Shown here one piece after another: positions 2,242 through 36,103 of a DNA stretch of 64,000 bases. The translations under genes and the position numbers were made by a program. The notes below the pieces were generated by a model. It worked only from the letters and a program-made list of their open reading frames with translations. It was not told where the DNA came from and searched no databases. The DNA comes from Escherichia coli. GTDB taxonomy: Bacteria; Pseudomonadota; Gammaproteobacteria; Enterobacterales; Enterobacteriaceae. The stretch lies in the NCBI RefSeq assembly GCF_013315695.1, contig NZ_CP054353.1; one strand, written 5' to 3'. Each line of letters opens with the position of its first letter. Positions within the stretch are counted from its first letter, which is position 1.

Positions 2242-2658
2242 ATGGCAAACCCGGAACAACTGGAAGAACAGCGTGAAGAAACACGTTTGATTATTGAAGA
2301 ATTACTGGAAGATGGCAGCGATCCGGACGCACTGTACACCATCGAACACCATCTTTCCGCAGACGATCTGGAAACCCTGGAAAAAGCAGCAGTTGAAGCG
2401 TTTAAACTCGGTTACGAAGTGACCGATCCAGAAGAGCTGGAAGTTGAAGATGGTGATATCGTGATTTGCTGCGACATCCTCAGCGAGTGCGCGTTGAATG
2501 CCGATCTGATCGATGCCCAGGTTGAACAACTGATGACGCTGGCGGAGAAATTTGACGTTGAGTACGACGGTTGGGGCACTTACTTTGAAGATCCCAACGG
2601 CGAAGACGGCGACGATGAAGATTTTGTCGATGAAGACGATGACGGGGTTCGCCACTAA
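2242..2658 (+). CDS. rraB: regulator of ribonuclease activity B, acidic protein
   Basis: 138-aa highly acidic protein; matches RraB (YjgD) and its position next to argI. Confidence 0.9.
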
Positions 2659-2703
2659 TTAATTGATTAAAATGCCCGATAGCACACACTAGCGGGCATT
2701 TTT

Positions 2704-3207
2704 TTAGAGTTCGCGTAGCATCCGCACTTCACAATCGACATGGCCCGTGCAGCCAAGCGCATAGTCGATATGCTCAAAGCCCAAATGCTCATAAAGCGCA
2801 ATGGCTTCCTTTAAAAAAGCGGTCGTTTCCAGATAGCAGCGTTTGAAGCCCATTTCTCGTGCCTGCTCCATCGCCATTAAGGCCAGTTTTTTCGCCAGCC
2901 CTTTACCGCGAATAGCCGGAAGAAAATACATCTTTTGCAGTTCGCAAATGTCCGATTCACTACCTGCTAATGGCGCAATCCCACCGCCGCCGACCACTTC
3001 ACCCTCGTACTCAACCACCCAATATGCATGACCCGGCTGACTATACACTTGATACAGCTCGTCAAGATTCGGATCGGCGACGGTGTAGCCTTTATCAGCG
3101 GTAAGACCGTATTCGGCGGATACCTGACGAATGACGCGGGCGATAGCAGGATTATCCTGCAACGTCAGGCGACGCATTACAGGTGATTGCGGCGCAATGT
3201 TATTCAT
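2704..3207 (-). CDS. yjgM: GNAT family N-acetyltransferase
   Basis: 167 aa with acetyl-CoA binding R-G-x-G-x-A-type motif ([10 protein letters not shown]); K-12 synteny. Confidence 0.85.
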
Positions 3208-3399
3208 AGTTTAACCCAATAAAAATAAAGTAATTATACATTTGTTTAATACCACTCTCTTCTTACGTGCGCAAGCGTCTTATAAAGCAATAAAGTTTTT
3301 GCCAGCCTATTACTGATAAGAGTATTGTAACGTGGCAGAACATTTTACTGTCTGTATCTATAAATTATATCAATGGATTTTTTAATTCAGGGAATTTTT

Positions 3400-4596
3400 A
3401 TGGCTCAAGTTATTAATGAAATGGATGTTCCGTCCCATTCGTTTGTTTTTCATGGTACAGGTGAGAGATATTTTCTTATTTGTGTGGTGAATGTGTTGTT
3501 AACGATTATAACGCTAGGTATCTATTTACCATGGGCATTAATGAAATGTAGGCGTTATCTCTATGCTAATATGGAAGTTAACGGACAACGATTTTCTTAT
3601 GGAATTACTGGTGGGAATGTTTTTTTTAGTTGTCTTGTTTTTGTTTTTTTCTATTTCGCAATCTTAATGACAGTGTCAGCAGATATGCCGCTTGTTGGCT
3701 GTGTTTTGACTTTGTCACTGTTGGTTTTGCTTATATTTATGGCAGCAAAAGGACTGCGTTATCAGGCCTTGATGACCAGTCTCAACGGCGTAAGATTTAG
3801 TTTTAATTGCTCTATGAAAGGGTTCTGGTGGGTAACCTTTTTCTTGCCGATTTTAATGGCCATTGGGATGGGGACTGTTTTCTTTATCTCGACAAAGATG
3901 CTACATGCCAATAGTTCAAGTAGTGTTATTATATCTGTGGTTCTGATGGCAATAGTTGGTATTGTTTCCATTGGTATTTTTAATGGTACTTTATATAGCC
4001 TGGTAATGAGTTTTCTCTGGAGCAATACCAGTTTCGGTATACATCGTTTCAAGGTGAAATTAGATACTGCGTATTGTATAAAATATGCCATCCTCGCATT
4101 TTTAGCTTTATTACCTTTTCTCGCTGTTGCTGGTTATATTATCTTCGATCAAATATTAAATGCGTATGATAGTTCTGTGTATGCAAATGATGATATTGAG
4201 AATTTACAGCAATTTATGGAAATGCAACGTAAAATGATAATCGCGCAGTTAATCTATTATTTTGGGATTGCTGTTAGCACCAGTTATTTAACGGTGTCGT
4301 TGCGAAATCATTTTATGAGCAACCTGTCACTGAATGATGGGCGTATTCGTTTTCGCTCAACTTTAACATACCACGGTATGCTTTATCGCATGTGTGCGTT
4401 GGTGGTGATATCCGGGATTACGGGCGGTCTGGCTTATCCACTGCTGAAAATATGGATGATTGACTGGCAGGCAAAAAATACGTATTTGCTGGGCGATTTG
4501 GATGACCTTCCTTTAATCAATAAAGAAGAACAACCAGATAAAGGCTTCTTAGCCAGTATTTCACGGGGAATTATGCCTTCTTTACCATTTCTGTAA
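3400..4596 (+). CDS. yjgN: DUF898-type inner membrane protein
   Basis: Multi-pass hydrophobic protein; start chosen at internal ATG (MAQVINEMD) to give 398 aa as in K-12 YjgN. Confidence 0.8.
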   Translation: MAQVINEMDVPSHSFVFHGTGERYFLICVVNVLLTIITLGIYLPWALMKCRRYLYANMEVNGQRFSYGITGGNVFFSCLVFVFFYFAILMTVSADMPLVGCVLTLSLLVLLIFMAAKGLRYQALMTSLNGVRFSFNCSMKGFWWVTFFLPILMAIGMGTVFFISTKMLHANSSSSVIISVVLMAIVGIVSIGIFNGTLYSLVMSFLWSNTSFGIHRFKVKLDTAYCIKYAILAFLALLPFLAVAGYIIFDQILNAYDSSVYANDDIENLQQFMEMQRKMIIAQLIYYFGIAVSTSYLTVSLRNHFMSNLSLNDGRIRFRSTLTYHGMLYRMCALVVISGITGGLAYPLLKIWMIDWQAKNTYLLGDLDDLPLINKEEQPDKGFLASISRGIMPSLPFL

Positions 4597-15270: not shown

Positions 15271-15355
15271 GCCGAAGTGGCGAAATCGGTAGACGCAGTT
15301 GATTCAAAATCAACCGTAGAAATACGTGCCGGTTCGAGTCCGGCCTTCGGCACCA
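15271..15355 (+). tRNA. leuX: tRNA-Leu (anticodon CAA)
   Basis: 85-nt sequence gccgaagtggcgaaatcggtagacgc...ggcacca with long variable arm and CAA anticodon loop, ending in CCA. Confidence 0.92.
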
Positions 15356-15357
15356 TC
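15313..15357 (+). repeat. Direct repeat copy 1 (leuX 3-prime end, attachment-site core)
   Basis: 45 bp identical except one mismatch to 25708-25752. Confidence 0.8.
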
Positions 15358-15889: not shown

Positions 15890-17098
15890 ATGAAATCTGT
15901 AGAACTATTTGCCGGTGCTGGTGGCTTGGCTATGGGTTGCGAAATTGCTGGTTTTGAGCATCTTGCAGTCGTTGAATGGGATAAATGGGCCTGTGATACC
16001 GTTAGAGAGAACAAAAAGAATGGCTTTCCGCTGTTGTCTGATTGGGATCTTTTTGAGGGTGATGTAAGAGAATTTGATTGGTCGAAAATCCCTAAAGGGA
16101 TTGACCTTCTTGCGGGAGGGCCACCTTGCCAGCCATTTTCAATCGGTGGTAAGCACAAGGCTAATTCTGATTCGCGGGACATGTTTCCAGCGACAGCAGA
16201 AGCGATCAGGCAAATTCGCCCTAAGGCTTTCATCGTCGAGAATGTGAAAGGCTTAACACGGGCAACCTTTGCGAGCTATTTCCAGTACATCCAGTTACAG
16301 CTTGAGTTTCCAGAAGTAGCCCCGCGAAATGGCGAAGACTGGAGCGAGCATTTAAAACGCTTGCAGGAAGAAAAAACCAGTGGAAAGAACAAAGGGAGAG
16401 GGCTGACGTATAACGTTCTGGCTACGTTAGTCAATGCAGCAGACTACGGCATCCCACAAAAACGTGAGCGTGTCTTCATTGTTGGCTTCCGCGATGATCT
16501 TGAAATTGAGTGGTCGTTCCCTAAACCGACACACAGTTATGATGCACTCGTTTATGATCAGTGGGTTACTGGTGATTACTGGAAACGACATGGTTTAGAA
16601 ATGCCAACTGTTCCAAGCCAGATGGTTAACCGTATCGCAAAATTGCGTAAAAATCCTCCCGATACACTTCCGTGGAAAACTGTTCGAGATGCAATCGCGG
16701 ATTTGCCAGATCCTGAAACAAAGGCGGCAAAGATGATCCGGAATCATGCGTTCCAGGCGGGGGCACGAACTTATCCCGGTCATACCGGAAGCCCCTTAGA
16801 TCTGCCAGCTAAAACGCTCAAAGCAGGTGCTCATGGCGTTCCTGGGGGCGAGAACATGCTTGTTCGTGATGATGGCTCAGTACGCTATTTTACTGTGCGA
16901 GAAAGTGCCAGAATTCAAACATTTCCCGATAGTTATCGTTTTCACGGGAGTTGGACTGAAACTATGAGGCAGTTAGGTAACGCTGTGCCGGTTCATTTGG
17001 CGTATTGCGTTGCCAGCAGTGTAGCGGAAAAGCTGCTGACCTCTGAAATTGGGAACATCCTTAAGCAGGGTGGCAATTATAAAAGGGCTTCTGCATGA
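15890..17098 (+). CDS. DNA (cytosine-5)-methyltransferase, Type II R-M modification subunit
   Basis: Motif I FAGAGG, motif IV GGPPCQPFS, motif VI ENVKGL; start set at MKSVELF with GGAG RBS. Confidence 0.88.
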   Translation: MKSVELFAGAGGLAMGCEIAGFEHLAVVEWDKWACDTVRENKKNGFPLLSDWDLFEGDVREFDWSKIPKGIDLLAGGPPCQPFSIGGKHKANSDSRDMFPATAEAIRQIRPKAFIVENVKGLTRATFASYFQYIQLQLEFPEVAPRNGEDWSEHLKRLQEEKTSGKNKGRGLTYNVLATLVNAADYGIPQKRERVFIVGFRDDLEIEWSFPKPTHSYDALVYDQWVTGDYWKRHGLEMPTVPSQMVNRIAKLRKNPPDTLPWKTVRDAIADLPDPETKAAKMIRNHAFQAGARTYPGHTGSPLDLPAKTLKAGAHGVPGGENMLVRDDGSVRYFTVRESARIQTFPDSYRFHGSWTETMRQLGNAVPVHLAYCVASSVAEKLLTSEIGNILKQGGNYKRASA

Positions 17099-17745
17099 CA
17101 GGAAAGGTCATACCATTTAATCCACTTGATAAACAAAATTTAGGTGCCAGCGTTGCGGAAGCCTTATTGAGCAAAGATGCTCATCCTCTGGAGGAGTTAA
17201 CCTCATTTCAAGGAGCAGGGATTTACGCAATTTATTACACTGGCGATCATCCTGCTTATAGGCAACTGGCAGAACTGAATCGTGACGGGCAATTTCGATT
17301 GCCTATCTACGTGGGTAAGGCCGTCCCAGCAGGGGCGAGAATGGGGCTTACCAACCCTGATAAGGTTGGTAACGTTCTGTTTAGGCGCTTGAAAGAACAT
17401 GCAGAAAGTATTCGCGCAGCGGAAAATCTTTCGATTGAAGATTTTTATTGTCGATTTTTGGTTGTTGATGACATCTGGATCCCATTGGGAGAATCGCTGG
17501 TTATCTCTCGCTTTAAACCGATTTGGAATTCGTCTATTGATGGTTTCGGTAATCATGACCCAGGTAAGCATCGCTACACTGGTTTACGTCCTCGCTGGGA
17601 CTTTATGCACCCGGGGAGAGGATGGGCTCAAAATTTACGTGAGCGTGATGAAACTGTGGATGAACTCATTCGTGATTCTATACAGTATCTTCAGAATTTA
17701 CCGCCTTGCTTGGCTCAGAAATTTATCGAAGCTGAAGGCGATTAA
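17095..17745 (+). CDS. GIY-YIG family restriction endonuclease (Eco29kI-like)
   Basis: GIYAIYY ... YVGKA motifs; 216 aa; start overlaps the methyltransferase stop (ATGA). Confidence 0.6.
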   Translation: MTGKVIPFNPLDKQNLGASVAEALLSKDAHPLEELTSFQGAGIYAIYYTGDHPAYRQLAELNRDGQFRLPIYVGKAVPAGARMGLTNPDKVGNVLFRRLKEHAESIRAAENLSIEDFYCRFLVVDDIWIPLGESLVISRFKPIWNSSIDGFGNHDPGKHRYTGLRPRWDFMHPGRGWAQNLRERDETVDELIRDSIQYLQNLPPCLAQKFIEAEGD

Positions 17746-17866: not shown

Positions 17867-18442
17867 TCAAATATCAGGGAGTTGCAAGAACGACTTAAGT
17901 CGGTAGAAGGTTGCTTTGCTGATCTCTAACCTATCCTGGACCGCTGCTGGTGGTAATCCTCGTGCTAATAACTCACGTACTTGTTCAACGGTTGCTTTGA
18001 TCGGTCTGCCGCAATGCTTACCTTCCGACTGAGCTCGTTTGATTCCTGCGGCTCTACGCTCTGCGATTAGGTCTTTTTCCAGGCTGGCAAGTCCTGCCAT
18101 CATAGTGAGCATGGCTTTACCCACTGGTGTTGAAAGATCAAACCCCTCTCGCAAGCTGACAACCTTCACACCCTTCATTTGCAACATTTCAACAGTAGAT
18201 AGTACATCGATAGTGTTACGTCCCAAGCGGTTTATAGCAATCACGATCAGCGTATCGCCTTCTCGCACATAATTGAGTAGTTCAGCAAACCCTGGACGCT
18301 CTCCTGCCTTGATTGCACCACTCACCGCTTCATCACTAAACCAGCGAGTTACGCTATAACCAGCATCGGCTATCTGCTTCTTCTGGTTTTCAACGTTTTG
18401 ATCGCTGGTGGAAACTCGCACATATCCGATCACAGTTGTCAT
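17867..18442 (-). CDS. serine recombinase (resolvase/invertase family)
   Basis: N-terminal GYVRVSTSDQ catalytic serine motif and C-terminal HTH; 191 aa. Confidence 0.88.
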   Translation of the reverse strand: MTTVIGYVRVSTSDQNVENQKKQIADAGYSVTRWFSDEAVSGAIKAGERPGFAELLNYVREGDTLIVIAINRLGRNTIDVLSTVEMLQMKGVKVVSLREGFDLSTPVGKAMLTMMAGLASLEKDLIAERRAAGIKRAQSEGKHCGRPIKATVEQVRELLARGLPPAAVQDRLEISKATFYRLKSFLQLPDI

Positions 18443-20790: not shown

Positions 20791-21711
20791 TTGATTCAAG
20801 CATACGAAGACGGCTATTTTTACAGAGATACCCCGCACCACGATCACTGCCCGCTTTCAGCATTTTCCAGACCATCCCAGCAATTCATCGTTATTGATAA
20901 TGTTCTGTACGTTGTCGAAGTGGAAAGTGGTGAAATTCTTCACTACGACTCGACAGAGTATTTGCTTGATGGTGGCATTGTTCAGGATCTGCATTTGAGT
21001 TACTCGACAGCAGACACCGCCAAATCAAAACAGGCTCACCGTGAATACGCTAATAAGCTGGGCGACCTTCCAGGGAATGCAGCCTATAACGGGATCAAGG
21101 AATACGCAGACGTATTAAGCAAGCCAGATTTCAAGAAAGTATTTGCATTGTGTCAGGAAGTAGATAGACGCAATGTAGTGTTTATAAAACGTGCGGATTT
21201 GAGCATAATACTGAACACCACGCCGGATCATCTCAATCGTGTATTATCTGCTCTTGAACGTAAGCACTACATCAAAGTTGATAAAGCTGAACACCAGAAA
21301 GGAGTATTAAAACTGTGGGTTAATCCTTCGTTTGTCTGGAAGGGTGATTCAGCTAACCGCTACTTATCTGGATATTTGCAGGGCTTCCCAATCTTGGAAC
21401 GTAAACGCTCCACAAAACGTTCTGACGTGCTCGACACGCTCACGGCTGCTGCAATGGTTGCCTTTGATACCTGGCACATTGAACACGGTTATAAGGCCAA
21501 TCAGCCTCATTCTAATGAATGGTATGCAGAGATCACGATGTACGAAAACGCCTACGGCGAAGGGGTGAGGCTTGCAGCAGAAAATAAGACATTGAACAAG
21601 TTATTGAACCCGGCAACATCTGAGGGGGATTTCGTTTATGAGCTATTCACTACGGCACAATACAGGGAATACCTGCAAACATTGGCAAAACAAGTAAGGA
21701 GATTACACTGA
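20791..21711 (+). CDS. hypothetical 306-aa protein with possible winged-helix segment
   Basis: Long ORF with GGAGG RBS; no recognisable catalytic motif. Confidence 0.6.
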   Translation: MIQAYEDGYFYRDTPHHDHCPLSAFSRPSQQFIVIDNVLYVVEVESGEILHYDSTEYLLDGGIVQDLHLSYSTADTAKSKQAHREYANKLGDLPGNAAYNGIKEYADVLSKPDFKKVFALCQEVDRRNVVFIKRADLSIILNTTPDHLNRVLSALERKHYIKVDKAEHQKGVLKLWVNPSFVWKGDSANRYLSGYLQGFPILERKRSTKRSDVLDTLTAAAMVAFDTWHIEHGYKANQPHSNEWYAEITMYENAYGEGVRLAAENKTLNKLLNPATSEGDFVYELFTTAQYREYLQTLAKQVRRLH

Positions 21712-21995
21712 ACCAATGTTTTGTAATAAAGAAGCCAGCACAATACTTATTTGAACTAAATTAAGCAACTCTCATACACACCGCTCTTTTGGTGAGTTAT
21801 TTATTACTATCTTTAAGGTGATGAGTGTTTATACTGTATTAAATTATTATAAATAAGGGGATGGTGTATGATTACAGCTCTTTATTGGTGTTTGTTCTTT
21901 CAGTTTGCGCTGTATTTTTTGTCTAAATTAAATTTAAATTGAAAATTAGCCCTGATCTTGAAATAGTTCAGGGCTGGAATTTCTAAAAAATAACA

Positions 21996-22955
21996 TCAGT
22001 GTGCTTTTAGTTCATCTTTAGCTAATGAGTCATAGAGTATTTTTGTGAGCGGAGACTCTAAATAATCATCACTAAGTAGTTTAATAAAATGCTTTTGGGA
22101 TTCTTTTGTTTTTACGAGCAATTGTGTGCCGTCTTCACTTACAATTAAAACTGTTGAAAGATAGGTATGCTTGCTTACATAATCGATAATTTCTGGCACA
22201 TCAATTTTCCCCAGTACAGGTGAGTGTTTGGCAATTTTGGCAAGCTTCCTTGAGAAAGAAATTTCTTTTGCACTCTTCTCAAGGTGAGTAAGATCTTCGA
22301 TAAGCAATGAAGCTTTCAATGCTTCCAAAGCCACCGTTGCTTGAGCTTCAATAACCTGATGGAACTGCATCGTTATTTCTAAAGTTTTTTGATTTTTTAT
22401 CAGGAATTCGTCGTCTATAAGAGCCAAGTCATAATTATAATCTAATCGGAACACTTGGGTTGGCAATTCTTTTAAATACCCGTCTGCGTCTGGTATCAAG
22501 TTAAACAATTTTCGGCTTTGCTCAAAAACCATGAGGTTTGTTTTGTTCTTATACAATGACAAACACTTATTGTTGCCTCTTAACTGAATTATTATCCCTT
22601 TCACGTCAGTAAATTTATTATTTAAATCATAATAATCCTGAGAGTTAGGCGGTATGGCTATTGCATTTTTTATAAAATCAAACTCTTTTGGATGTTCTTC
22701 ATAATCAAATGCAAACAAGGCATTTTTTCTATCATCAAAATTCGAAAGGAGAGGAATGGTTAAATCCTCATTTGTCACAATGTCGTCGTAAAGCCTAATT
22801 TTGAATCCTTCAACAATTTTTGGTAAAGCTTCAGCATCTATTTTAGATAATTTTAATTCATAATTATCTTCAGTTTTAACTATAAAGATAATTCTTATAC
22901 CTGAGAAATTATCGAAAATTTCGGTGATTTGATTTTTAAAATTCACAGGGGTCAT
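21996..22955 (-). CDS. 319-aa soluble protein, KwaB-like (candidate Kiwa component)
   Basis: Co-oriented with and overlapping the membrane protein gene; size and order match the Kiwa KwaA-KwaB arrangement. Confidence 0.55.
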   Translation of the reverse strand: MTPVNFKNQITEIFDNFSGIRIIFIVKTEDNYELKLSKIDAEALPKIVEGFKIRLYDDIVTNEDLTIPLLSNFDDRKNALFAFDYEEHPKEFDFIKNAIAIPPNSQDYYDLNNKFTDVKGIIIQLRGNNKCLSLYKNKTNLMVFEQSRKLFNLIPDADGYLKELPTQVFRLDYNYDLALIDDEFLIKNQKTLEITMQFHQVIEAQATVALEALKASLLIEDLTHLEKSAKEISFSRKLAKIAKHSPVLGKIDVPEIIDYVSKHTYLSTVLIVSEDGTQLLVKTKESQKHFIKLLSDDYLESPLTKILYDSLAKDELKAH

Positions 22956-23572
22956 TATTTTTTCCTTGCTATGAAAACGTAGTCATCAAAAAAACTATAG
23001 AATACTTGATCGTCAACAGTCAGCACATCCATCGAGATTGCAATGACGTTTTTTACTTCACCACTTCCTGCATGAGAAATGTTAACTCTATACAACTTAT
23101 AACCGAAAAGCGCCAAAGTAGGATTCGCATAATACTTATCCGTTTTAATGAAAATTAAACCAATAACTACTATTAAGAGAAAGTACGCAATGTTTTTCTG
23201 AGGGTCATCAAAACTGAATCCCATAAAAGGTACTATGTAAGTTGCTAAGAAAGTCAAACTTTCATAGCTCTCACTTTGGCAAGCAGTGATTGTTACACAG
23301 TCAGCATTGTTGACCTTCGTCAATCCTTTAAACCTTCTATAGAAATAAAATGCTATTCCTATAAAAATTAAACAAATTATTGAGATTATGTTGCTGGAAG
23401 CTAATTGATAAAAACCTATAAAATGGCAGGAAGAGCCATAACAAAATGGGATTTTTGCGCTCAAAATGATAATAAAAACAAACAGCAACATTAAAGACAG
23501 TATGTATAGTCCCATCTTGTTGAATGTGCTTTTTCGTTTCATGTTATCCCCCAGTGATGAAATCATAATCAA
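22955..23572 (-). CDS. four-TM membrane protein, KwaA-like (candidate Kiwa component)
   Basis: 205 aa with four hydrophobic helices; AT-rich; stop overlaps start of downstream gene. Confidence 0.6.
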   Translation of the reverse strand: MIMISSLGDNMKRKSTFNKMGLYILSLMLLFVFIIILSAKIPFCYGSSCHFIGFYQLASSNIISIICLIFIGIAFYFYRRFKGLTKVNNADCVTITACQSESYESLTFLATYIVPFMGFSFDDPQKNIAYFLLIVVIGLIFIKTDKYYANPTLALFGYKLYRVNISHAGSGEVKNVIAISMDVLTVDDQVFYSFFDDYVFIARKK

Positions 23573-23826
23573 AACTTGATCATGTGAACATCAAAAGCAT
23601 ACCTTAAAGCACTGGTTTTTTGTACAGCAATCGGCAAATTCATGCGTACTATCGAACTTACAAGAGGACGCATAGTAGATTTTCTGATCCAAATTGCCAT
23701 CATGTACTTTTAATTCATGTAGAGTAGCCAATGAAGTATCAGCAATTACATGATTTTATTGTCTATTTTTTATGTTTTTTTGTAAAACACCAGAAGATTG
23801 AAAAGGGCCAATGAGGCCCCTTGGCG

Positions 23827-24078
23827 TTATTTACGGTTTTTGTTGGATTGAGCCAGCACGGAAGCAGCAAGCTGCTTGGTTAAAGTACTGGAACGTGGAT
23901 TATCCAGCGCCGCAGATGCTTTATGTTCCATTGCACCACTTGTCTGATTTGAGGAACCTTTTTGAGAGAGAGCTGAACCAGCAAGGCTCTTCTGAATTGC
24001 AGATGCGTTGGGGTTGTTTAGGGTTTGTGCTGCGACTGATGCGACTTTACTTGATGTTTGCTTTGAATTGTTAGCCAT
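23827..24078 (-). CDS. small S/A/Q/N-rich protein with internal repeats
   Basis: ORF with repeated KxxASxxAQ-like segments; start set at MANNSK. Confidence 0.35.
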   Translation of the reverse strand: MANNSKQTSSKVASVAAQTLNNPNASAIQKSLAGSALSQKGSSNQTSGAMEHKASAALDNPRSSTLTKQLAASVLAQSNKNRK

Positions 24079-24309: not shown

Positions 24310-25593
24310 CTATTTATCAGTTTTCTCACGTTGGGGCTCCGTCTCTATCTCTGGGTAACGTAATAGCTCGATGTATGGCTGTAGTTCAATCGGAGATGCT
24401 GCATTCTTGCTGTACGTCTTGAAACTTTCTGTAGAGCCGCGCTCATGACCCAAGAGAAGTGCGATCCGGTCTTCTGTAACTGGTTTTAACTTACCTCGTC
24501 CAACCCCCCCACGATCCAGAATCTGCGCCACTGCATGGCGTAGACTGTGAAAAACTTTCAACTCTGATCCTACTTCCCCCAATGCCTTACGTTTAGCCCT
24601 CGTAAAACGCTGTGAATGCCACGTAGAGCGCTTTCCATCTGCGCGGTCAGCTATCGACGCACGATAGAATAAAAAGCCGTTATGGGGCTTCTCACGCAGC
24701 GACAAAACCAACGGAGTGATCAGGCTATGCACCGGAATAATACGGGCTGCTGATTTGGTCTTCCCCTCCGTCACTTCGAAACATAACACCCCTTCAATCT
24801 CTCGGATGTTGGCTGCACGTAATGAACAAATTTCATTCAGGCGCATACCGCTATACATCCCGATCAGCGTTACATTTTGCATCTCTTCATCATTCGCCAT
24901 CACAGCGAACACCTTCGCCAATTCTCCAGGCTCAAATACTTCATAACTCACCTTGCTACTTTTGGCCTCCAGCGCATGACCGCGCCAGATGTTTTCTTGC
25001 GGTGCATCGTGGTAGCGATTACGGGCCAGATCCCAGATTTGAGCCAGTGCGCTGACATAGTTTTGTATGGTCTGTGGTGCTTTCTCCGTCTTGAGCTGAT
25101 CAAGCCAGCCTGTAACGGTGGTTCGGTTAACGTCACGAAGCTGAACATCACGCTTTTTCAGATGTTCTAAGAGCACTTCAACAGCCTTGTTTGTCTTCGA
25201 TAGCGTAGTGAGTTTGCGCTTCTCGCTGAACTGCAATAGATAAAGATCACGCATTTTCAGGAGGGATGGCACTCCTTGGGATTGGGTATTGCTCATGACA
25301 TGCTGAACAGGTGTTTCATGAACTCGGGCGCTAACTCTGCGTAGCTCTGCAATTGCCTGCTCAATCTTACTCCCTTCTCTTGGTTTGACCTGTTCCCGTA
25401 AACGTATCCATTCAACAGCGATAGCATCTCTGAACAATCGCGCCTGACGTATGTCACTTGTGCCAGTGCTCTTGACGAAGTAGCGCTTGTTGCCAAAAAG
25501 CGAGCGCATGTAAGCTGGAACGGTAATCCTTACCAGATAGTTTCCGCATGGATCTAAAACTAAGTAACGATCTCTCTTGAAACTCATGTTCAC
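24310..25593 (-). CDS. tyrosine-type site-specific integrase
   Basis: C-terminal catalytic region with HSLRH and LLGH motifs; adjacent to the distal direct repeat. Confidence 0.88.
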   Translation of the reverse strand: MNMSFKRDRYLVLDPCGNYLVRITVPAYMRSLFGNKRYFVKSTGTSDIRQARLFRDAIAVEWIRLREQVKPREGSKIEQAIAELRRVSARVHETPVQHVMSNTQSQGVPSLLKMRDLYLLQFSEKRKLTTLSKTNKAVEVLLEHLKKRDVQLRDVNRTTVTGWLDQLKTEKAPQTIQNYVSALAQIWDLARNRYHDAPQENIWRGHALEAKSSKVSYEVFEPGELAKVFAVMANDEEMQNVTLIGMYSGMRLNEICSLRAANIREIEGVLCFEVTEGKTKSAARIIPVHSLITPLVLSLREKPHNGFLFYRASIADRADGKRSTWHSQRFTRAKRKALGEVGSELKVFHSLRHAVAQILDRGGVGRGKLKPVTEDRIALLLGHERGSTESFKTYSKNAASPIELQPYIELLRYPEIETEPQREKTDK

Positions 25594-25707: not shown

Positions 25708-25752
25708 ACCGTAGAAATACGTGCCGGTTCGAGCCCGGCCTTCGGCACCATC
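25708..25752 (+). repeat. Direct repeat copy 2 (partial leuX 3-prime end)
   Basis: accgtagaaatacgtgccggttcgagcccggccttcggcaccatc matches tRNA 3-prime end 15313-15357 with one mismatch. Confidence 0.8.
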
Positions 25753-25948: not shown

Positions 25949-27126
25949 ATGGCTCTGAGTGATGTGAAGGTTCGTTCGGCTAAGCCTGAAGCAAAAGCCT
26001 ATAAGCTGACCGACGGTGAAGGCATGGTTTTGCTGGTTCACCCTAACGGCTCCAAATACTGGCGGCTACGTTATCGCTTTGGCGGTAAAGAGAAGATGCT
26101 GGCATTGGGGAAATACCCCGAAGTGTCGTTGGCGGATGCCAGGGCACGCCGGGATGAGGCTCGTAAGCTTTTAGCTAATGGTGTCGATCCCAGTGAAAAC
26201 AAGAAAGCTGTTAAGGTAGAATAGGAACAAGAGGCGATAACGTTTGAAGTAGTCGCCAGAGACTGGCACGCCAGCAATCAGAAGTGGTCGGCATCGCATA
26301 GCGCTCGTGTTTTGAAAAGTCTGGAGGATAATCTCTTTACTGCTATCGGTAAGCGGAACATTGCGGAACTGAAGACGCGGGATCTTCTTGTACCCATTAA
26401 AGCAGTCGAGTCATCCGGGCGGCTCGAAGTTGCCGCCCGTTTACAGCAGCGTACTACCGCGATTATGCGCTTTGCCGTTCAGAGCGGCTTAATCGACTAC
26501 AACCCCGCGCAAGAGATTGCAGGTGCGGTTGCTACGGCGAAAAGACAGCACCGTGCAGCTCTTGAACTGAACCGTATACCTGAATTACTTCATCGCATAG
26601 ATCACTATTCTGGCAGACCGTTAACTCGACTGGCGGTTGAACTCACTTTATTGGTTTTCATCCGTTCGAGCGAGCTGCATTTTGCCCGCTGGTCAGAAGT
26701 AGATTTTGAAACGGCTATGTGGACAATCCCAGGTGAGCGTGAGCAACTGGAAGGAGTCAAGCATTCTCAGCGTGGCTCGAAGATGCGGACACCACACCTT
26801 GTACCTTTGTCGCGGCAGGCCCTAAGTATTTTGGAAAAGATCAAAAGCATGAGCGGAAATTGAGAGCTGATTTTTGTGGGCGATCACGATCCACGTAAGC
26901 CGATGAGTGAGAATACGGTGAACAAGGCTTTGCGCGTAATGGGGTATGACACGAAGGTCGAGGTTTGTGGGCATGGCTTCAGGACGATGGCTTGTAGTTC
27001 GTTGATTGAGTCGGGATTATGGTCGAGGGATGCGGTAGAGCGGCAGATGAGTCACCAGGAGCGTAGCTCTGTGCGAGCCGCTTACATCCATAAGGCGGAA
27101 CATCTTGGGGAGCGTAGGTTGATGTT
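25949..27126 (+). pseudogene. intB: P4-type integrase, fragmented and truncated by IS911
   Basis: N-terminus MALSDVKVRSAKPEAKAYKLTDGEG; reading frame broken into three ORFs; 3-prime end replaced by IS911 left end. Confidence 0.8.
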
Positions 27127-27198
27127 TGAAGTGGCACACTGAATTTGGCCACCTGAACAGAGGTGATATGCTCACCTCAGAACAACACAGGTGCTCCA

Positions 27199-28364
<1,166 letters not shown>

Positions 28365-30109
28365 CCACTTCAAACGGACTGGGAGAACAGGTACAACATG
28401 TGCTGAATGATAATCCCTTCTCCGGTCACCTGTTTATCTTCCGTGGCCGACGGGGTGACACCGTCAAAATTCTTTGGGCTGATGCTGATGGTCTGTGCCT
28501 GTTCACCAAACGCCTGGAGGAAGGCCAGTTTATCTGGCCTGCGGTACGTGACGGCAAGGTATCCATTACCCGCTCGCAACTGGCAATGCTCCTCGATAAG
28601 CTGGACTGGCGTCAGCCAAAAACATCCAGCCGTAACTCACTGACAATGTTGTAAAAAACTCCTGACCGCATTATAAAAACGGTCATGAGTCAGAAATACC
28701 TCATTCGCATCGCAGAGCTGGAAAGGTTGCTCTCTGAGCAGGCTGAAGCCCTCCGTCAGAAAGACCAGCAACTGAGTCTGGTTGAAGAGACGGAAGCCTT
28801 CCTGCGCTCTGCACTGACACGTGCCGAAGAAAAGATCGAAGAAGATGAACGGGAAATAGAACATCTGCGGGCTCAGATAGAAAAACTGCGCCGGATGCTG
28901 TTCGGTACCCGTTCTGAAAAACTGCGTCGTGAAGTTGATCTGGCTGAGGCTCTGCTGAAACAACGTGAACAGGACAGCGATCGTTACAGTGGGCGGGAAG
29001 ACGATCCTCAGGTTCCCCGCCAGTTGCGACAGTCGCGCCATCGTCGTCCGTTACCGGCACACCTTCCCCGTGAAATACACCGCCTGGAGCCAGAAGAAAG
29101 CTGTTGCCCGGAGTGTGGCGGTGAGCTGGATTATCTGGGGGAAGTCAGCGCTGAACAGCTGGAACTGGTGAGCAGTGCCCTGAAAGTGATCCGCACAGAA
29201 CGGGTAAAAAAAGCCTGTACAAAATGTGACTGTATTGTTGAAGCACCGGCGCCGTCCCGCCCGATAGAGCGTGGTATCGCGGGCCCCGGATTACTTGCCC
29301 GCGTGTTAACGGGAAAATACTGCGAACATCTGCCACTGTATCGTCAGAGTGAAATCTTTGCCCGCCAGGGTGTCGAACTGAGCCGGGCCTTACTCTCCAA
29401 CTGGGTTGACGCGTGCTGCCAGTTAATGACACCGGTGAATGATGCCCTGTACCGTTATGTAATGAACACCCGCAAGGTTCACACTGATGACACACCGGTA
29501 AAGGTACTGGCACCGGGTCAGAAAAAGGCGAAAACAGGGCGTATCTGGACGTATGTCCGGGATGATCGCAATGTGGGTTCGTCATCTCCTCCAGCGGTCT
29601 GGTTCGCGTACTCGCCGAACCGGCAGGGGAAACACCCGGAGCAACACCTCCGCCCCTTCCGGGGTATCCTGCAGGCGGATGCGTTCACAGGTTACGACAG
29701 GTTGTTCAGTGCAGAACGTGAAGGTGGTGCACTGACAGAAGTTGCGTGCTGGGCCCATGCCCGGCGAAAAATCCACGATGTATACATCAGCAGCAAAAGT
29801 GCGACGGCAGAAGAAGCCCTGAAGCGAATCAGTGAACTGTACGCCATCGAGGATGAAATACGGGGATTACCGGAGTCAGAGCGTCTTGCCGTCAGGCAGC
29901 AGCGAAGCAAAGTGTTACTGACGTCGCTGCATGAATGGATGGTGGAGAAGAATGGTACGCTGTCGAAAAAATCCAGACTGGGCGAAGCGTTCAGCTATGT
30001 ACTGAATCAGTGGGATGCCCTCTGTTATTACAGTGATGACGGTCTGGCGGAGGCGGATAATAATGCTGCGGAAAGAGCGCTTCGTGCAGTCTGTCTCGGA
30101 AAGAAAAAC

Positions 30110-31560
30110 TCTTATGACCTTTGTCAAATATTAAGCCCAAAAAGACCTACGCAGCTCCGGGAGCTTCGTTATATCGCGGATTAAAGAACCTGAAACAGTC
30201 AGACTGTATCTTGGATTTTACAAACTCTTATTCGGGGATTTTAGCCCCATGACGATTTACGCAGTGAGCTGGCCTCTTTCTATATGCAGGTATTGGCGCA
30301 TTCTGACCTCCTGAATTCTTTTACGAGGATCACTCATTCCGTGTCTGACTGCTTCAGGGTTTAATTTTGCTTCTGCTGACTGAATGATGATTGGGCAGCA
30401 AGTGCAATATCCCACATAAATCCAGTCAACTCACGAGCCACCGCCGTAATGGCTACTTGTGATTTTTTCCCTTTTGCTGTCAGACTTCGGTAACGAGAAC
30501 ACAATCGTTGTTGAGCTTTCCATGCAATATCTTTGGAATATTGTGTTACAGAATCCGGTCGGTAATATATAAGCCATGCACCAACTTTTGCAGGTGTACG
30601 ATAAGACCAGGCGGCTTCGTAAAGCAGACGTCTCAGTTCGCTGTTTCCAACTTTTGTTATTCCTCTGGGACGAATACTGTTTCCACTGGAATATTCACCT
30701 GGCACCAGTCCCAGAAAAGCCATGAGCTGTTTGGGACTGGAAAATCGCGAAAAATCACCCAGTTCAGCAACCAGGGTTATTGCAATTAGCTGACCAACAC
30801 CTTTTAGAGCCTGCAACTGGCAGACCAGATTGCACAGAGACCACTCAGGTAACAGGCGAGATATTTCCTGGTCGAGTTGAAGTATGCGATCTTCAATCTG
30901 CTCCAGACTTTGACAATAGTGTTGAAAAGCAATCTGCTGAGATGGCTGACTAAATGATTGATTAGCTAACCAGGTTCGATGTTTGCCGGTCCAGTGCTTC
31001 CCTGCATAACGTTTGTCTGTTCGCAATAGCATGCTCAGAATTCGCTGTCGGGCAACTCTGCTGTCTCGTTTAGCTGCTGCACGGGCTCTGATTAGATCCC
31101 GCATAGCTTCATGAGTCAGGTCAGGGATCCAGACAGGGGTAAGTTCACCAGCCCGCAGTAACCTGGCAAGAGAAATTGCGTCCCGATGATCATTTTTGAT
31201 TCTGTCTGTCGGTGATTTTGGTATCCGGGAAGGGGCAATAACCTGGCATTTTATATTCATCGCTGTGAGTTGATGATATAGCCCAAAACCACAGGGGCCA
31301 GCCTCATAGCAGGAAAGAATGTTTCCGTAAAGTCCCTGCAATTTCTGAAATAATCGACGTACAGCCTGGGCTTCGTTGTTAATCGTACCATAATAACGAA
31401 CTTCGCCAAGCCGTTCAGGTGCAGCAATAGCAACCGCCAACGTTTCTTTATGTACATCCAGCCCGATGTAAGCTGCAATATTTTCCGAATGCATAATGAC
31501 CTCCTCTGGAATATCCCACCAATGCTATAGTGAGTATATAAAGGTCATACCATCTTTATG
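30110..31560 (-). mobile_element. IS110-family insertion sequence nested in IS66 tnpC
   Basis: Boundaries from the break in the IS66 TnpC reading frame; encodes a DEDD-type transposase; 251-bp non-coding region 3-prime of the transposase. Confidence 0.7.
30361..31494 (-). CDS. IS110-family DEDD transposase/recombinase
   Basis: N-terminal YIGLDVHK RuvC-like motif typical of the IS110 family; 377 aa. Confidence 0.8.
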   Translation of the reverse strand: MHSENIAAYIGLDVHKETLAVAIAAPERLGEVRYYGTINNEAQAVRRLFQKLQGLYGNILSCYEAGPCGFGLYHQLTAMNIKCQVIAPSRIPKSPTDRIKNDHRDAISLARLLRAGELTPVWIPDLTHEAMRDLIRARAAAKRDSRVARQRILSMLLRTDKRYAGKHWTGKHRTWLANQSFSQPSQQIAFQHYCQSLEQIEDRILQLDQEISRLLPEWSLCNLVCQLQALKGVGQLIAITLVAELGDFSRFSSPKQLMAFLGLVPGEYSSGNSIRPRGITKVGNSELRRLLYEAAWSYRTPAKVGAWLIYYRPDSVTQYSKDIAWKAQQRLCSRYRSLTAKGKKSQVAITAVARELTGFMWDIALAAQSSFSQQKQN

Positions 31561-31726
31561 TTCTTTGGCAGCGATCACGGCGGCGAGCGTGGAGCACTGT
31601 TGTACGGGCTGATCGGCACCTGCCGTCTGAACGGTATCGATCCGGAAGCGTATCTGCGCCATATCCTGAGCGTACTGCCGGAATGGCCTTCCAACCGAGT
31701 TGATGAACTGCTGCCATGGAACGTAG

Positions 31727-32468
<742 letters not shown>

Positions 32469-32655
32469 TCAGTTTATCCCCGCAGTGGCAAAGTGTTCGC
32501 TTTTGCCGACTGGACAGTGGCAGTGCCTGTCTCTACTGCGCCATCGCTGAACAGTGCAGAATTAGCAACGTTTGCTTTTGGCACAAAGCATACGCCCATT
32601 CTCACGCGAATGCTTTGCCCTTGACTTGCCAACAACCGAATTGCTTGCTCTGCAG

Positions 32656-33948
32656 CTATGTTTTTTTATTAGAATATTCGCCACTAAATAAATTATAATA
32701 AGTTGATTTTATTAGATATCTATCAGAATCTATATGGTCAGCACGAGTTGCATGCTCTAATGTTTCAAATGCCAGGGTATGTGCGGCTTCAGCAAATATC
32801 TCAGGCCAACCTTTACTCAGCATCGACAGTCCTTTAAGGACTCTTATCTGAATCTCCCTCATACTGGCACCATCGCGCGCGACAGGTGAGAAAAAGTCTT
32901 CCAGTAGATCGTTATTCTGAAGTGGTGCAACATGTACTGAAGGATATTTCACTTCTATTTCATCAGATTTATTCTGCGCGTAAGTGGAAAGTATACGAAC
33001 ACCTCTGCCAATGACATCAATGGCGGTTCCAGGATCGTTCACTGCAGGGGAAAGGGCCCGGCAGGCTATTTCGGCCATGACGCTAAGACAAAATCGAGGA
33101 TCCTGAGCAAATGAACGTGCATCCGAGACAATAATCGTCTCAAGTAAATCGGTGTTGATTGACGACTCCTGGCCCTGACTCAGGTACAAAACTGGCATGG
33201 ACGGATGTATGAAACTGCCTGGCTGCGCCACGAGGTATACATGACGGGGATCATTGGTCAGCAGCTTGCTAAGTTTCACCATATCAATATATTCAACATA
33301 GCCAATCTTCTTCGGATAAACTGCAACCGTTCCTTTCGGCTGTTCATTGTTCTCAAGCCATGGATATCCGCCGAGACAGGGATTTCTTGCTCTCGCAATA
33401 AATGTTTCGATGGCCGCCTGTTCTACTTGTGCCGTTGTCTCACCAACCCTCCCCAGAGAGGTCAAATGCTGTATCCAGCGAAGCAATGTGATGAGGATTA
33501 AGGCAATGACAACCAGTGTGACAATGAATAAAATGACTCTCCCCCTTTCTCCATAAGCTCCCATATTGAGGGCAATAATCCCTACCAGACTGAAGAGAAA
33601 AGAACCGATGAAGGTGGCCAGTACATTTTGTGTGGTGACGTCTTCAACAACTAAACGCGTAGCTCTGGGAGTCACATTAGTAGTGGCTGAACCGTAGGCT
33701 GTGACCATGATACTCAGCGAAAATGTGGTCACTGCCAGCATACTCGATGCCAGTATGTTCAGAATGTTATCGACTGCTTCCGCACCAACCTTCACGGAAA
33801 CCGACTCAGGTATCATTGATTTAAAAAGAATTGATAAAAGGGCCGTTATTATCGCGACAATTGCGAATAACGTTGCCCTGAACCATAGTTTTTTAATTGT
33901 CTGCTTCAGCATCCATTTCCAGCGTGAAATCATTCTGCATTCCCTCAT
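32656..33948 (-). CDS. DUF2254-like integral membrane protein
   Basis: N-terminal multi-TM region followed by large soluble domain; 430 aa. Confidence 0.55.
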   Translation of the reverse strand: MRECRMISRWKWMLKQTIKKLWFRATLFAIVAIITALLSILFKSMIPESVSVKVGAEAVDNILNILASSMLAVTTFSLSIMVTAYGSATTNVTPRATRLVVEDVTTQNVLATFIGSFLFSLVGIIALNMGAYGERGRVILFIVTLVVIALILITLLRWIQHLTSLGRVGETTAQVEQAAIETFIARARNPCLGGYPWLENNEQPKGTVAVYPKKIGYVEYIDMVKLSKLLTNDPRHVYLVAQPGSFIHPSMPVLYLSQGQESSINTDLLETIIVSDARSFAQDPRFCLSVMAEIACRALSPAVNDPGTAIDVIGRGVRILSTYAQNKSDEIEVKYPSVHVAPLQNNDLLEDFFSPVARDGASMREIQIRVLKGLSMLSKGWPEIFAEAAHTLAFETLEHATRADHIDSDRYLIKSTYYNLFSGEYSNKKT

Positions 33949-33995
33949 ATTGCGGCCGGGATAATAATTGCCGCCCCCAGGACGGCATGTTGCTA

Positions 33996-35999
33996 TTAAC
34001 GAACCAGGTGCAGGAAGTGCAGGTGTTTTTCGTACTGGTCCAGTATGTCATTAATCAGCTGTTCCTGGTTCCAGCCCATCACATCATAATTTTGACCGCC
34101 TTCTTTGAGATAAACCTCAGCGCGATAATATCGATGTTGTTCAGTCTGCTGCTCATCATTATCCATTGCGGCGAGCGCGAAGGTCGGTGAGATATACCCG
34201 CGAAGCCTCACTTCATATATAAAATTCAGCTCGTTGCCCAAATCGACTTCAAGACGAATACGATCGTCGACTGCATCACTAATGTGGCTTATCGTCCCCT
34301 GCTTGTTCAGTTCCTCCTGAACCAGCGTCATGGCAGGCTGGATAACGTCGTCCATAAAACGTTTCACAAGAGATCGCTTCGGCAGATACGCGATATTGCG
34401 TAACCTTCTCTGCCAAGGAATTGGGTTACGTGCAGCCGTAGGAGCAATTGTCGCCATGCTCAGGCTTTCACGCTTGGTCAAATCCCGGCGCAAAGCTTTT
34501 AAAAGTCCGTATATAGATATTAGTAAGATCACTGAGAAGGGCAATGCACTCGCTATTGTCACCGTTTGCAGCGCACTTAGCCCTCCGGCAAGGAGAAGCG
34601 CAATTGCAACAATGCCCATAAGCGAGGCCCAGAATATTCGCTGCCAGACGGGTGTGTTTGCCACTCCACCTGATGCCAGAGTATCCACAACCATTGCCCC
34701 CGAATCAGCAGACGTTACAAAGAAGACGATGACCATCGCCATTGCAATGAATGACAGCACAGAAGAGAACGGGAAATGCTCCAGGAAATTAAACAGGGCC
34801 AGCGCCACATCCTGCTGAACAGTATTGGCGAGGTCTGTGGCCCCCTGGTTCATAATGAGATAGATCGCGCTGTTACCAAACACCGTCATCCACATTAGCG
34901 TAAAACCCGCGGGAACAAACAGCACGCCGGTGACAAACTCGCGAATGGTTCGCCCGCGGGAGACCCGTGCGATGAACATCCCCACAAACGGCGACCATGA
35001 AAGCCACCATCCCCAGTACAGTAATGTCCAGCCCCCCAGCCAGTTGCTCGACTTGGGCTCATACGCGTAAAGGTTGAACGTTTTACTCACCAGTTCCGAA
35101 AGATAACCGCCCGTATTTTCCACAAATGACTTCAGCAGAAGCACGGTTGGTCCCAGACACAGGACCAGCGCCAGGAGCAACAAAGCCAGACCCAGATTGA
35201 GTTCAGACAGGATACGTATTCCCTTATCCAGACCGGACACCACTGAAATCGTCGCTAACCCCGTGATGACCACGATCAGAATTACCTGCACCGTTTCATT
35301 GATGGGCACCCCGAAAAGATGGTTCAAACCGGCATTCACCTGCAAAACACCGTAACCCAGTGATGTCGCAACGCCAAAGACCGTGCCTATAACAGCGAAA
35401 ATATCAACCGCATGTCCTACAGGTCCGTATATGCGATCGCCAATAATGGGATAGAGTGCGGAGCGCAGAGTTAAAGGCAGACCGTGACGGTAACTGAAGA
35501 ACGCCAGAATCAGCGCCACAATGGCATAAATTGCCCATGCGTGCAGTCCCCAGTGGAAAAAGGTCAGACGCATTGCTTCCTTAGCTGCCGCAACGGTTTC
35601 TGGAGTGCCAACGGGTGGCGAAAGATAATGCATTACAGGTTCGGCAACGCCAAAGAACATCAGGCCGATCCCCATCCCTGCCGAAAAAAGCATCGCAAAC
35701 CAGGAGTGGTAGCTGAAATCAGGCTGCGCATGGTCCGGGCCCAGCTTGATATCACCGTAGCGTGAGAGTCCAAGGAACGTGACACTCAGTAAAATCAGGG
35801 CCACAGCAAGGATGTAGAACCAGCTGGCATTCGTGAAGATTTGTTGCTGAAGTAGTTTAAAATTTTTGTCGGCGACATCCGGGAATACGGCGGCAAAGGC
35901 GACAAGAAGGAAAATTAGCAAAGCAGATGTAAAGAATACCGCTTTGTTAATCTGACTTGTAGACTTCTTTGGGATTGTATCATTTTCACTCATAATCAT
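33996..35999 (-). CDS. BCCT-family (betaine/carnitine/choline) transporter, BetT-like
   Basis: 667 aa, 12-TM core with W-rich BCCT signature segment and long C-terminal cytoplasmic extension. Confidence 0.8.
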   Translation of the reverse strand: MIMSENDTIPKKSTSQINKAVFFTSALLIFLLVAFAAVFPDVADKNFKLLQQQIFTNASWFYILAVALILLSVTFLGLSRYGDIKLGPDHAQPDFSYHSWFAMLFSAGMGIGLMFFGVAEPVMHYLSPPVGTPETVAAAKEAMRLTFFHWGLHAWAIYAIVALILAFFSYRHGLPLTLRSALYPIIGDRIYGPVGHAVDIFAVIGTVFGVATSLGYGVLQVNAGLNHLFGVPINETVQVILIVVITGLATISVVSGLDKGIRILSELNLGLALLLLALVLCLGPTVLLLKSFVENTGGYLSELVSKTFNLYAYEPKSSNWLGGWTLLYWGWWLSWSPFVGMFIARVSRGRTIREFVTGVLFVPAGFTLMWMTVFGNSAIYLIMNQGATDLANTVQQDVALALFNFLEHFPFSSVLSFIAMAMVIVFFVTSADSGAMVVDTLASGGVANTPVWQRIFWASLMGIVAIALLLAGGLSALQTVTIASALPFSVILLISIYGLLKALRRDLTKRESLSMATIAPTAARNPIPWQRRLRNIAYLPKRSLVKRFMDDVIQPAMTLVQEELNKQGTISHISDAVDDRIRLEVDLGNELNFIYEVRLRGYISPTFALAAMDNDEQQTEQHRYYRAEVYLKEGGQNYDVMGWNQEQLINDILDQYEKHLHFLHLVR

Positions 36000-36103
36000 T
36001 TATTCCATTAATTAAATTCGCACTGGATAGAAGGTACTACCTCTCACAAAGTAGCAAAGTTCAACTGGCTATGCGGCGTTAATCGTAATGCATGGTGGAA
36101 TGT

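Follow-up and report, generated by a model that had tools for sequence, protein, structure and literature searches.

An apparently intact Kiwa (kwaA-kwaB) anti-phage operon carried with a type II restriction-modification system on a leuX island of Escherichia coli

Two adjacent genes on the minus strand were studied in a 64,000-nt stretch of Escherichia coli DNA, referred to here as the window. kwaA (22955..23542, TAA stop included) lies directly upstream of kwaB (21996..22955). kwaA encodes an integral membrane protein of 195 aa, called from its ORF, homology and hydropathy, and kwaB a soluble protein of 319 aa, called from its ORF and homology. The mechanically defined kwaA ORF is longer (22955..23572, 205 aa) and begins at a TTG at 23572. 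The ATG at 23542 is nevertheless the likely start, giving 195 aa, because it is preceded by GGGGGA (23552-23547), because PGAP uses the same start in identical genomes and because 195 aa equals the length of the solved KwaA chain. The kwaA TAA (22957-22955) and the kwaB ATG (22955-22953) overlap by a single base within TAATG, and AAGGA is found 7 nt upstream of the kwaB ATG. Neither ORF is truncated, each has a good ribosome-binding site and the junction is translationally coupled.

KwaA showed four hydrophobic segments, with hydropathy peaks at approximately residues 9-33, 45-69, 93-113 (weak) and 113-137. Solved KwaA has four TM helices (PMC11785009), and the agreement of the peaks with these helices supports four membrane segments in the window protein, followed by a cytoplasmic C-terminal region. 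By contrast, no hydrophobic segment was found anywhere in the 319 aa of KwaB, in which an N-terminal Rossmann-like region is followed by a C-terminal DUF4868/KwaB DNA-binding domain. The initial annotation, made from the raw sequence, had described a 205-aa protein with four TM helices; the helices are borne out by hydropathy but the length is not, as 205 aa counts from the TTG. Its description of the second gene, a soluble 319-aa protein whose ATG overlaps the upstream stop, was correct. So was its claim of high AT content: GC is 32.8% in the kwaAB operon vs 49.2% in the window, and 1-kb bins across 22001-24000 range from 32.5 to 36.3%, compared with 52-57% in the core flank at 5-15 kb.

The two proteins were assigned to Kiwa by several model sets. 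PADLOC identified KwaA at 1.6e-79, over model positions 2-192 of 194, and KwaB at 9.6e-117 with the whole model covered. Both proteins scored well above the curated cut-offs of their NCBIfam equivalogs, with 192 bits for NF041622 (KwaA; cut-off 100) and 245 bits for NF041623 (KwaB; cut-off 200). In Pfam, KwaB residues 117-304 matched PF16162 (KwaB-like, formerly DUF4868) with E = 1e-31. The Pfam scan of KwaA returned only noise (DUF6097, E = 0.22) from a Pfam set that evidently did not include PF28043 KwaA; this family is on record for the identical protein. Against solved chains, KwaA aligned to residues 2-194 of PDB 9mrg_A (E = 2.1e-89, 72% identity) and KwaB matched 9o0i_H (1.3e-131) and 9mrx_K over its full length, both at about 1e-131. 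The initial annotation had guessed at Kiwa, with KwaA followed by KwaB, from raw sequence alone. That guess is confirmed by PADLOC, NCBIfam, the Pfam DUF4868 family, the solved chains and the RefSeq annotation of identical DNA.

The arrangement, with a gene for a small TM protein ahead of one for a soluble protein inside a defence island, is generic. On this ground alone the genes might be an unrelated membrane-associated pair, of the abortive-infection or toxin type or with a transport or housekeeping role, resembling Kiwa only in gene order and size. This reading is refuted by the PADLOC, NCBIfam and solved-chain homology and we regard its probability as negligible. Both proteins match the KwaA and KwaB models and the solved structures over their full length, with high scores and specifically, whereas no competing NCBIfam family was significant (the next matches reached at most 21.6 bits, below their own cut-offs). 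Kiwa itself is not an abortive system, as most infected Kiwa-bearing cells survive (PMC11785009), and the fallback of the initial annotation, an abortive-infection pair, can be set aside. We therefore read the gene pair as a Kiwa operon directed against phages and plasmids, intact and functional-looking, which forms the cargo of a leuX island together with a type II restriction-modification (R-M) system. We give this reading, made from the sequence, a probability of roughly 95%.

The locus is already known as Kiwa. The 2.2-kb segment is 100% identical at the nucleotide level in five complete E. coli chromosomes (EcPF7, MS15047, NCTC9080, JSWP006 and MINF_7C), in which the RefSeq/PGAP annotation reads kwaA and kwaB, 'anti-phage protein'. 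The exact KwaA (RefSeq WP_000824184.1) occurs on about 449 public contigs and the exact KwaB (RefSeq WP_000189294.1) on about 475, where the source names are anti-phage KwaA and KwaB. The structure and mechanism of Kiwa have been published, and the system is among the most abundant bacterial defence systems, present in 9,582 of 223,143 genomes including 1,713 of E. coli (PMC11785009). The locus is thus one further instance of Kiwa, with significance little past its correct annotation.

Terminator-like hairpins were found only outside the gene pair. Just past the kwaB stop, RNA folding revealed a minus-strand hairpin (AGCCCUGA...UCAGGGCU) with a U-rich tail at approximately 21935..21975 (-16.9 kcal/mol, z = -3.4 vs shuffles). 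A second minus-strand hairpin (GGGGCC-loop-GGCCC, then UUUU) lies at approximately 23799..23822, after an upstream 83-aa ORF, and was more stable still (-18.9 kcal/mol, z = -3.5, equalled by none of 200 shuffles). A simple terminator scan gave nothing above chance, including at the hairpin around 21935-21975, and the terminators emerged only from folding. Because of the hairpin after the 83-aa ORF, kwaAB would be expected to have a promoter of its own in the 23543-23798 spacer. kwaAB is thus probably a separate transcription unit with a promoter in this 250-bp AT-rich spacer. The candidate is a weak sigma-70 site on the minus strand (TTTACA, 17 nt, GACAAT; 23758..23786) which matches the consensus at 9 of 12 positions. 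No promoter above chance was found for kwaAB, as consensus-scan sites in the region were no more numerous than in shuffled sequence.

We also considered whether either neighbouring gene could belong to the system. The 83-aa ORF (23827-24078) was rejected as a Kiwa part, being separated from kwaA by the terminator-like hairpin and absent from the prototype locus. It matches PHROG 5079, a family of unknown function, and has no Pfam match. The convergent wHTH gene on the other side (20791-21711) was likewise rejected as a third Kiwa component. It shows no similarity to the gene at the equivalent position in RM12579 and has no PADLOC, NCBIfam or PHROG match, its sole Pfam match being a weak one to a Crp-like HTH.

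The operon lies within a genomic island at leuX, the tRNA-Leu(CAA) gene (15271-15355), which is the insertion site. The 3' end of the tRNA forms attL (15313..15357, plus strand), the left copy of a 45-bp direct repeat made up of the last 43 nt of the tRNA and the two following bases. The right copy, attR (25708..25752, plus strand), is identical at 44 of 45 positions, and a pattern search gave zero such repeats expected by chance. The distance from attL to attR is 10,395 bp, bounding an island of approximately 10.4 kb. Next to attR is a tyrosine integrase of 425 aa (24310..25587, minus strand), named 'tyrosine-type recombinase/integrase' by PGAP and matching PHROG 1 integrase at 1.2e-27; its XerD-type NCBIfam matches are weak. 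At the leuX end are a DNA cytosine-5 methyltransferase (15890-17098, plus strand; PADLOC MTase_II 4.7e-135, TIGR00675 dcm, PGAP name) and an Eco29kI-family restriction endonuclease (17095-17745, plus strand; PADLOC REase_II 1.1e-153, PGAP name). In full, the order is m5C methyltransferase, Eco29kI endonuclease, serine recombinase/invertase, small ORFs, wHTH gene, kwaB, kwaA, 83-aa ORF and tyrosine integrase. GC in the island is 32-48% vs 52-57% in the core flank. With its tRNA 3' end, direct repeat, own integrase and deviating composition, the element is a tRNA-integrated genomic (defence) island. The initial annotation had placed the gene pair in a tRNA-bounded island with an integrase and an R-M system, and the att repeat, the integrase and the R-M genes (15890-17745) now delimit it as a compact leuX island with two defence systems, Eco29kI-type R-M and Kiwa.

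The complete 10.4-kb island is present in 6 of 5,426 complete E. coli genomes, and the exact kwaB allele sits in the same island at all eight public places listed, with IS insertions as the sole difference. Directly past attR the sequence continues as another, older leuX island with a P4-like integrase pseudogene and IS3, IS66 and IS21 fragments, followed by other accessory genes. The genome of CEA106S does not have other cargo where Kiwa would be; the distal half of its island was lost via IS100, IS3 and IS66 events.

The prototype Kiwa is that of E. coli O55:H7 RM12579, for which structures have been solved (9mrg, 9mrr, 9mrx, 9mtn, 9nyu and 9o0i). It shares the gene order and the overlap of kwaA with kwaB, and KwaA is 195 aa in both systems whilst KwaB is 319 aa in the window and 315 aa in RM12579. 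In both systems the best sub-models in PADLOC are PDLC00219 and PDLC00233, and both operons lie in a defence-rich, integrase-associated island. Global full-length identity is 71.9% for KwaA and 65.2% for KwaB. The window operon is nonetheless a separate allele, with about 28-35% of residues differing. Its KwaB has a 3-residue insertion near residue 25, and its genes overlap by 1 nt (TAATG) rather than the 4 nt of RM12579. The neighbours also differ: the RM12579 operon is accompanied by an HsdM-family methyltransferase gene and a type II Zorya system, the window operon by Eco29kI-type R-M. Kiwa variants each have their own phage spectrum (PMC11785009), and for this reason phage specificity probably differs between the window and RM12579 systems.

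Functional residues were mapped on the basis of the O55:H7 RM12579 Kiwa structure (PMC11785009), and most interface and DNA-contact residues proved to be conserved. In KwaA, the O55:H7 contact residues K75, N77, D80, H156, Y181, F183 and K194 are kept as K76, N78, D81, H157, Y182, F184 and K195, and three minor contact residues differ (Y76V, Q79A and T162V, relative to O55:H7). In KwaB, R21, P100, N101, Q103 and Y157 (O55:H7 numbering) are kept, R35 is conservatively replaced by K38 and N42 by P45. Six residues of the KwaB channel are predicted to contact DNA (N134, R142, R167, D169, K187 and R233 in O55:H7; PMC11785009). Five of these are retained, as N137, R170, D172, K190 and R236, whilst R142 is replaced by E145 with reversal of charge. 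The six DNA-contact residues have been mutated only jointly (PMC11785009).

A closer relative may be the Kiwa of E. coli ECOR49, one of five Kiwa operons tested by Zhang, Todeschini et al. (PMC11785009). Under its native promoter, ECOR49 Kiwa protected against phage and reduced conjugation (PMC11785009). Its defence was abolished by the triple mutants KwaA K76A/V77A/N78A, KwaA Y182A/F184A/K195A and KwaB R21A/K38A/Y160A (PMC11785009). The window system has the same two-gene operon, with K76/V77/N78 and Y182/F184/K195 in KwaA and R21/K38/Y160 in KwaB, the same residues at the same numbers. The nearest other allele found, that of strain E1739, has F at KwaB position 160. The quoted similarity of ECOR49 KwaA to the O55:H7 protein, 71.6% (PMC11785009), is also close to the 71.9% identity that we measured for window KwaA. 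Residues and numbering thus agree for three of the four ECOR49 triple mutants. The fourth is printed as P102A/N103A/Q104A, unlike the P103/N104/Q106 of the window copy, and because of this numbering misfit the window Kiwa can be called only probably the same allele as that of ECOR49, a match that stands on coincidences of residue and number.

These comparisons bear on whether the operon is a working system. The genes could be Kiwa homologues by descent which now persist as a silent or inactive remnant on a decaying island, either unexpressed or unable to defend. IS debris and pseudogenes do abound at the locus, with a frameshifted ORF inside the island as well as the P4-like integrase pseudogene and IS fragments beyond it, and one genome (CEA106S) has lost its Kiwa half to IS events. 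The lack of promoter-like sites above chance and the charge reversal at one of the six DNA-contact residues point in the same direction. Against this, both ORFs are complete, well provided with ribosome-binding sites and translationally coupled, and the sequence is 100% conserved in the five complete genomes and recurs on hundreds of contigs. The residues hit by the defence-abolishing triple mutations are all kept, R35 in the form of the conservative K38 which is also the ECOR49 residue, and the match in residues and numbering is to a Kiwa that is active against phage from its native promoter. E145 also occurs in the KwaB of a sister allele, that of E1739, and so looks like a lineage feature rather than a lesion. 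We consider a dead remnant very unlikely and favour an intact Kiwa operon.

For this operon we infer expression, assembly, phage specificity and mechanism from its close homology with the Kiwa systems of PMC11785009. KwaA would assemble in the inner membrane as a homotetramer. [quoted passage not shown] KwaB dimers would dock on the KwaA barrel and link adjacent tetramers, giving a fence-like supercomplex; the prediction that KwaA tetramers and KwaB dimers assemble in this way at the membrane draws on their 65-72% identity with the solved 9mrx complex. [quoted passage not shown] In the published work, KwaB foci arise at phage attachment sites ahead of DNA ejection (PMC11785009). KwaB would then bind the incoming DNA via its DUF4868 domain, regardless of sequence, and it has been found to bind both ssDNA and dsDNA non-specifically (PMC11785009). 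Binding is expected to stall phage replication forks and block late transcription, leaving the infected cell mostly alive. The steps of membrane-curvature sensing and fork stalling are partly inferential in the source itself, drawn from localisation, RNA-seq and a drop of roughly 25% in phage DNA (PMC11785009). DNA mimics of phage origin, lambda Gam among them, may inhibit KwaB; Gam does so in the published system, where it is partitioned between KwaB and RecBCD (PMC11785009).

Comparison with a sister leuX island in E1739 indicated that the two genes have not diverged evenly. This island has the same att site and gene order and 96.5% nucleotide identity outside a divergent block, and its KwaA is 95.0% identical to window KwaA. 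By contrast, its KwaB shows only 73.4% protein identity, with approximately 70% nucleotide identity across kwaB and 75.5% over the whole of 21500-23050. Identity changes abruptly at the kwaA/kwaB junction, whereas its decay into the convergent wHTH gene, which diverges partly along with kwaB, is gradual. KwaA and KwaB phylogenies are incongruent, and on occasion the two genes have been transferred separately (PMC11785009). In the leuX island family, kwaB, the DNA-binding effector, may have been swapped as a cassette independently of kwaA, a tentative reading of the sequence to which we give less than even odds. If correct, islands that are otherwise identical could differ in phage spectrum through kwaB exchange, which would be a concrete example of independent kwaA/kwaB transfer rather than a new principle. 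The leuX island could be used as a natural setting in which to test kwaB allele swaps.

In E1739, KwaA is extended by 4 residues at its C-terminus and carries H157Y, and KwaB has Y160F and K190T. The few KwaA differences cluster in the KwaB-contacting C-terminus (H157Y and the tail), alongside Y160F in KwaB. Phage inhibitors, Gam-like DNA mimics for example, could have driven a diversifying exchange of the effector in which the interface co-adapted, and the divergence of kwaB may be the trace of this.

Among 5,426 complete E. coli genomes, only 6 had the 10,395-bp island carrying Kiwa in complete form. This island is a compact integrative element, delimited by a direct repeat of 45 bp that copies the tRNA-Leu(CAA) 3' end (15313-15357 and 25708-25752, copies 44/45 identical). 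It is inserted in tandem with an older leuX island, now decayed, which follows it. Two defence systems are present within it, an Eco29kI-type restriction-modification (R-M) system and Kiwa. The sole widespread part of the island is a segment at island positions ~2500-3690, which occurs in many other E. coli genomes at ~89% identity and contains a 191-aa serine recombinase/DNA invertase (17867-18442, minus strand; PHROG 125, 2.3e-57).

We compared the island with the sister leuX island of E. coli E1739. The two share 96.5% nucleotide identity overall, whilst kwaB is only ~70-75% identical (region compared 21500-23050). At the protein level KwaB retained 73.4% amino acid identity and KwaA 95.0%. 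The break in identity is sharp at the kwaA/kwaB junction (~22950-23000), and on the other side identity falls off gradually into the winged-HTH gene convergent with kwaB. This pattern suggests an allelic replacement affecting kwaB alone. The KwaA differences are concentrated in its KwaB-contacting C-terminus, comprising H157Y and a tail extension. The winged-HTH protein, with an identity of only 82.7% between the two islands, thus co-diverges in part with kwaB.

The window and E1739 alleles of KwaB have in common a glutamate at position 145 (E145, ~22521-22523), which replaces the predicted DNA-contact arginine R142 of the prototype Kiwa from E. coli O55:H7 RM12579. The substitution reverses the charge at this point of the proposed DNA channel.

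The R-M genes of the island overlap and form a complete-looking type II pair (15890-17745, plus strand; PADLOC), encoding a 402-aa DNA cytosine-5 methyltransferase and a 216-aa restriction endonuclease of the Eco29kI family (PADLOC REase_II, 1.1e-153). The winged-HTH protein (20791-21711, plus strand; 306 aa) gave a weak Crp-like HTH match (E = 1.8e-4) and no defence, NCBIfam or PHROG match, and its gene is unrelated to that at the matching position of the prototype Kiwa locus. Just upstream of kwaA, and separated from it by a terminator-like hairpin, lies an ORF of 83 aa that is rich in Ser/Ala/Gln and contains internal repeats (23827-24078, minus strand). This ORF matched PHROG 5079 (3.9e-22) but no Pfam family, and is 100% conserved across both island variants.

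The defence island of RM12579 is much richer than the window's Kiwa island. There, no more than a few kb separate the prototype Kiwa locus (L002 9330-12684) from a type II Zorya system (zorA2/zorB2/zorE), a restriction endonuclease that binds phosphorothioated DNA and a gene for an HsdM-family methyltransferase.

Beyond attR, the right copy of the repeat, the older leuX island (25949-37100) contains a P4-like tyrosine integrase pseudogene interrupted by an internal stop, followed by nested fragments of IS3, IS66 (ISEc23), IS110 (ISEc45) and IS21/IS100. More accessory cargo lies downstream (~43500-47400 and 47600-56200), identified from the annotation of EcPF7, which carries identical Kiwa DNA. 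It includes a polysaccharide deacetylase-capU-virK-lpxM cluster, which we take to be of the kind known from virulence plasmids of Shigella and EAEC, and an IS-flanked fecIRABCDE ferric-citrate uptake operon. Past this operon, the same annotation places genes of the YfjI and GTPase families, as well as agn43 (Ag43).
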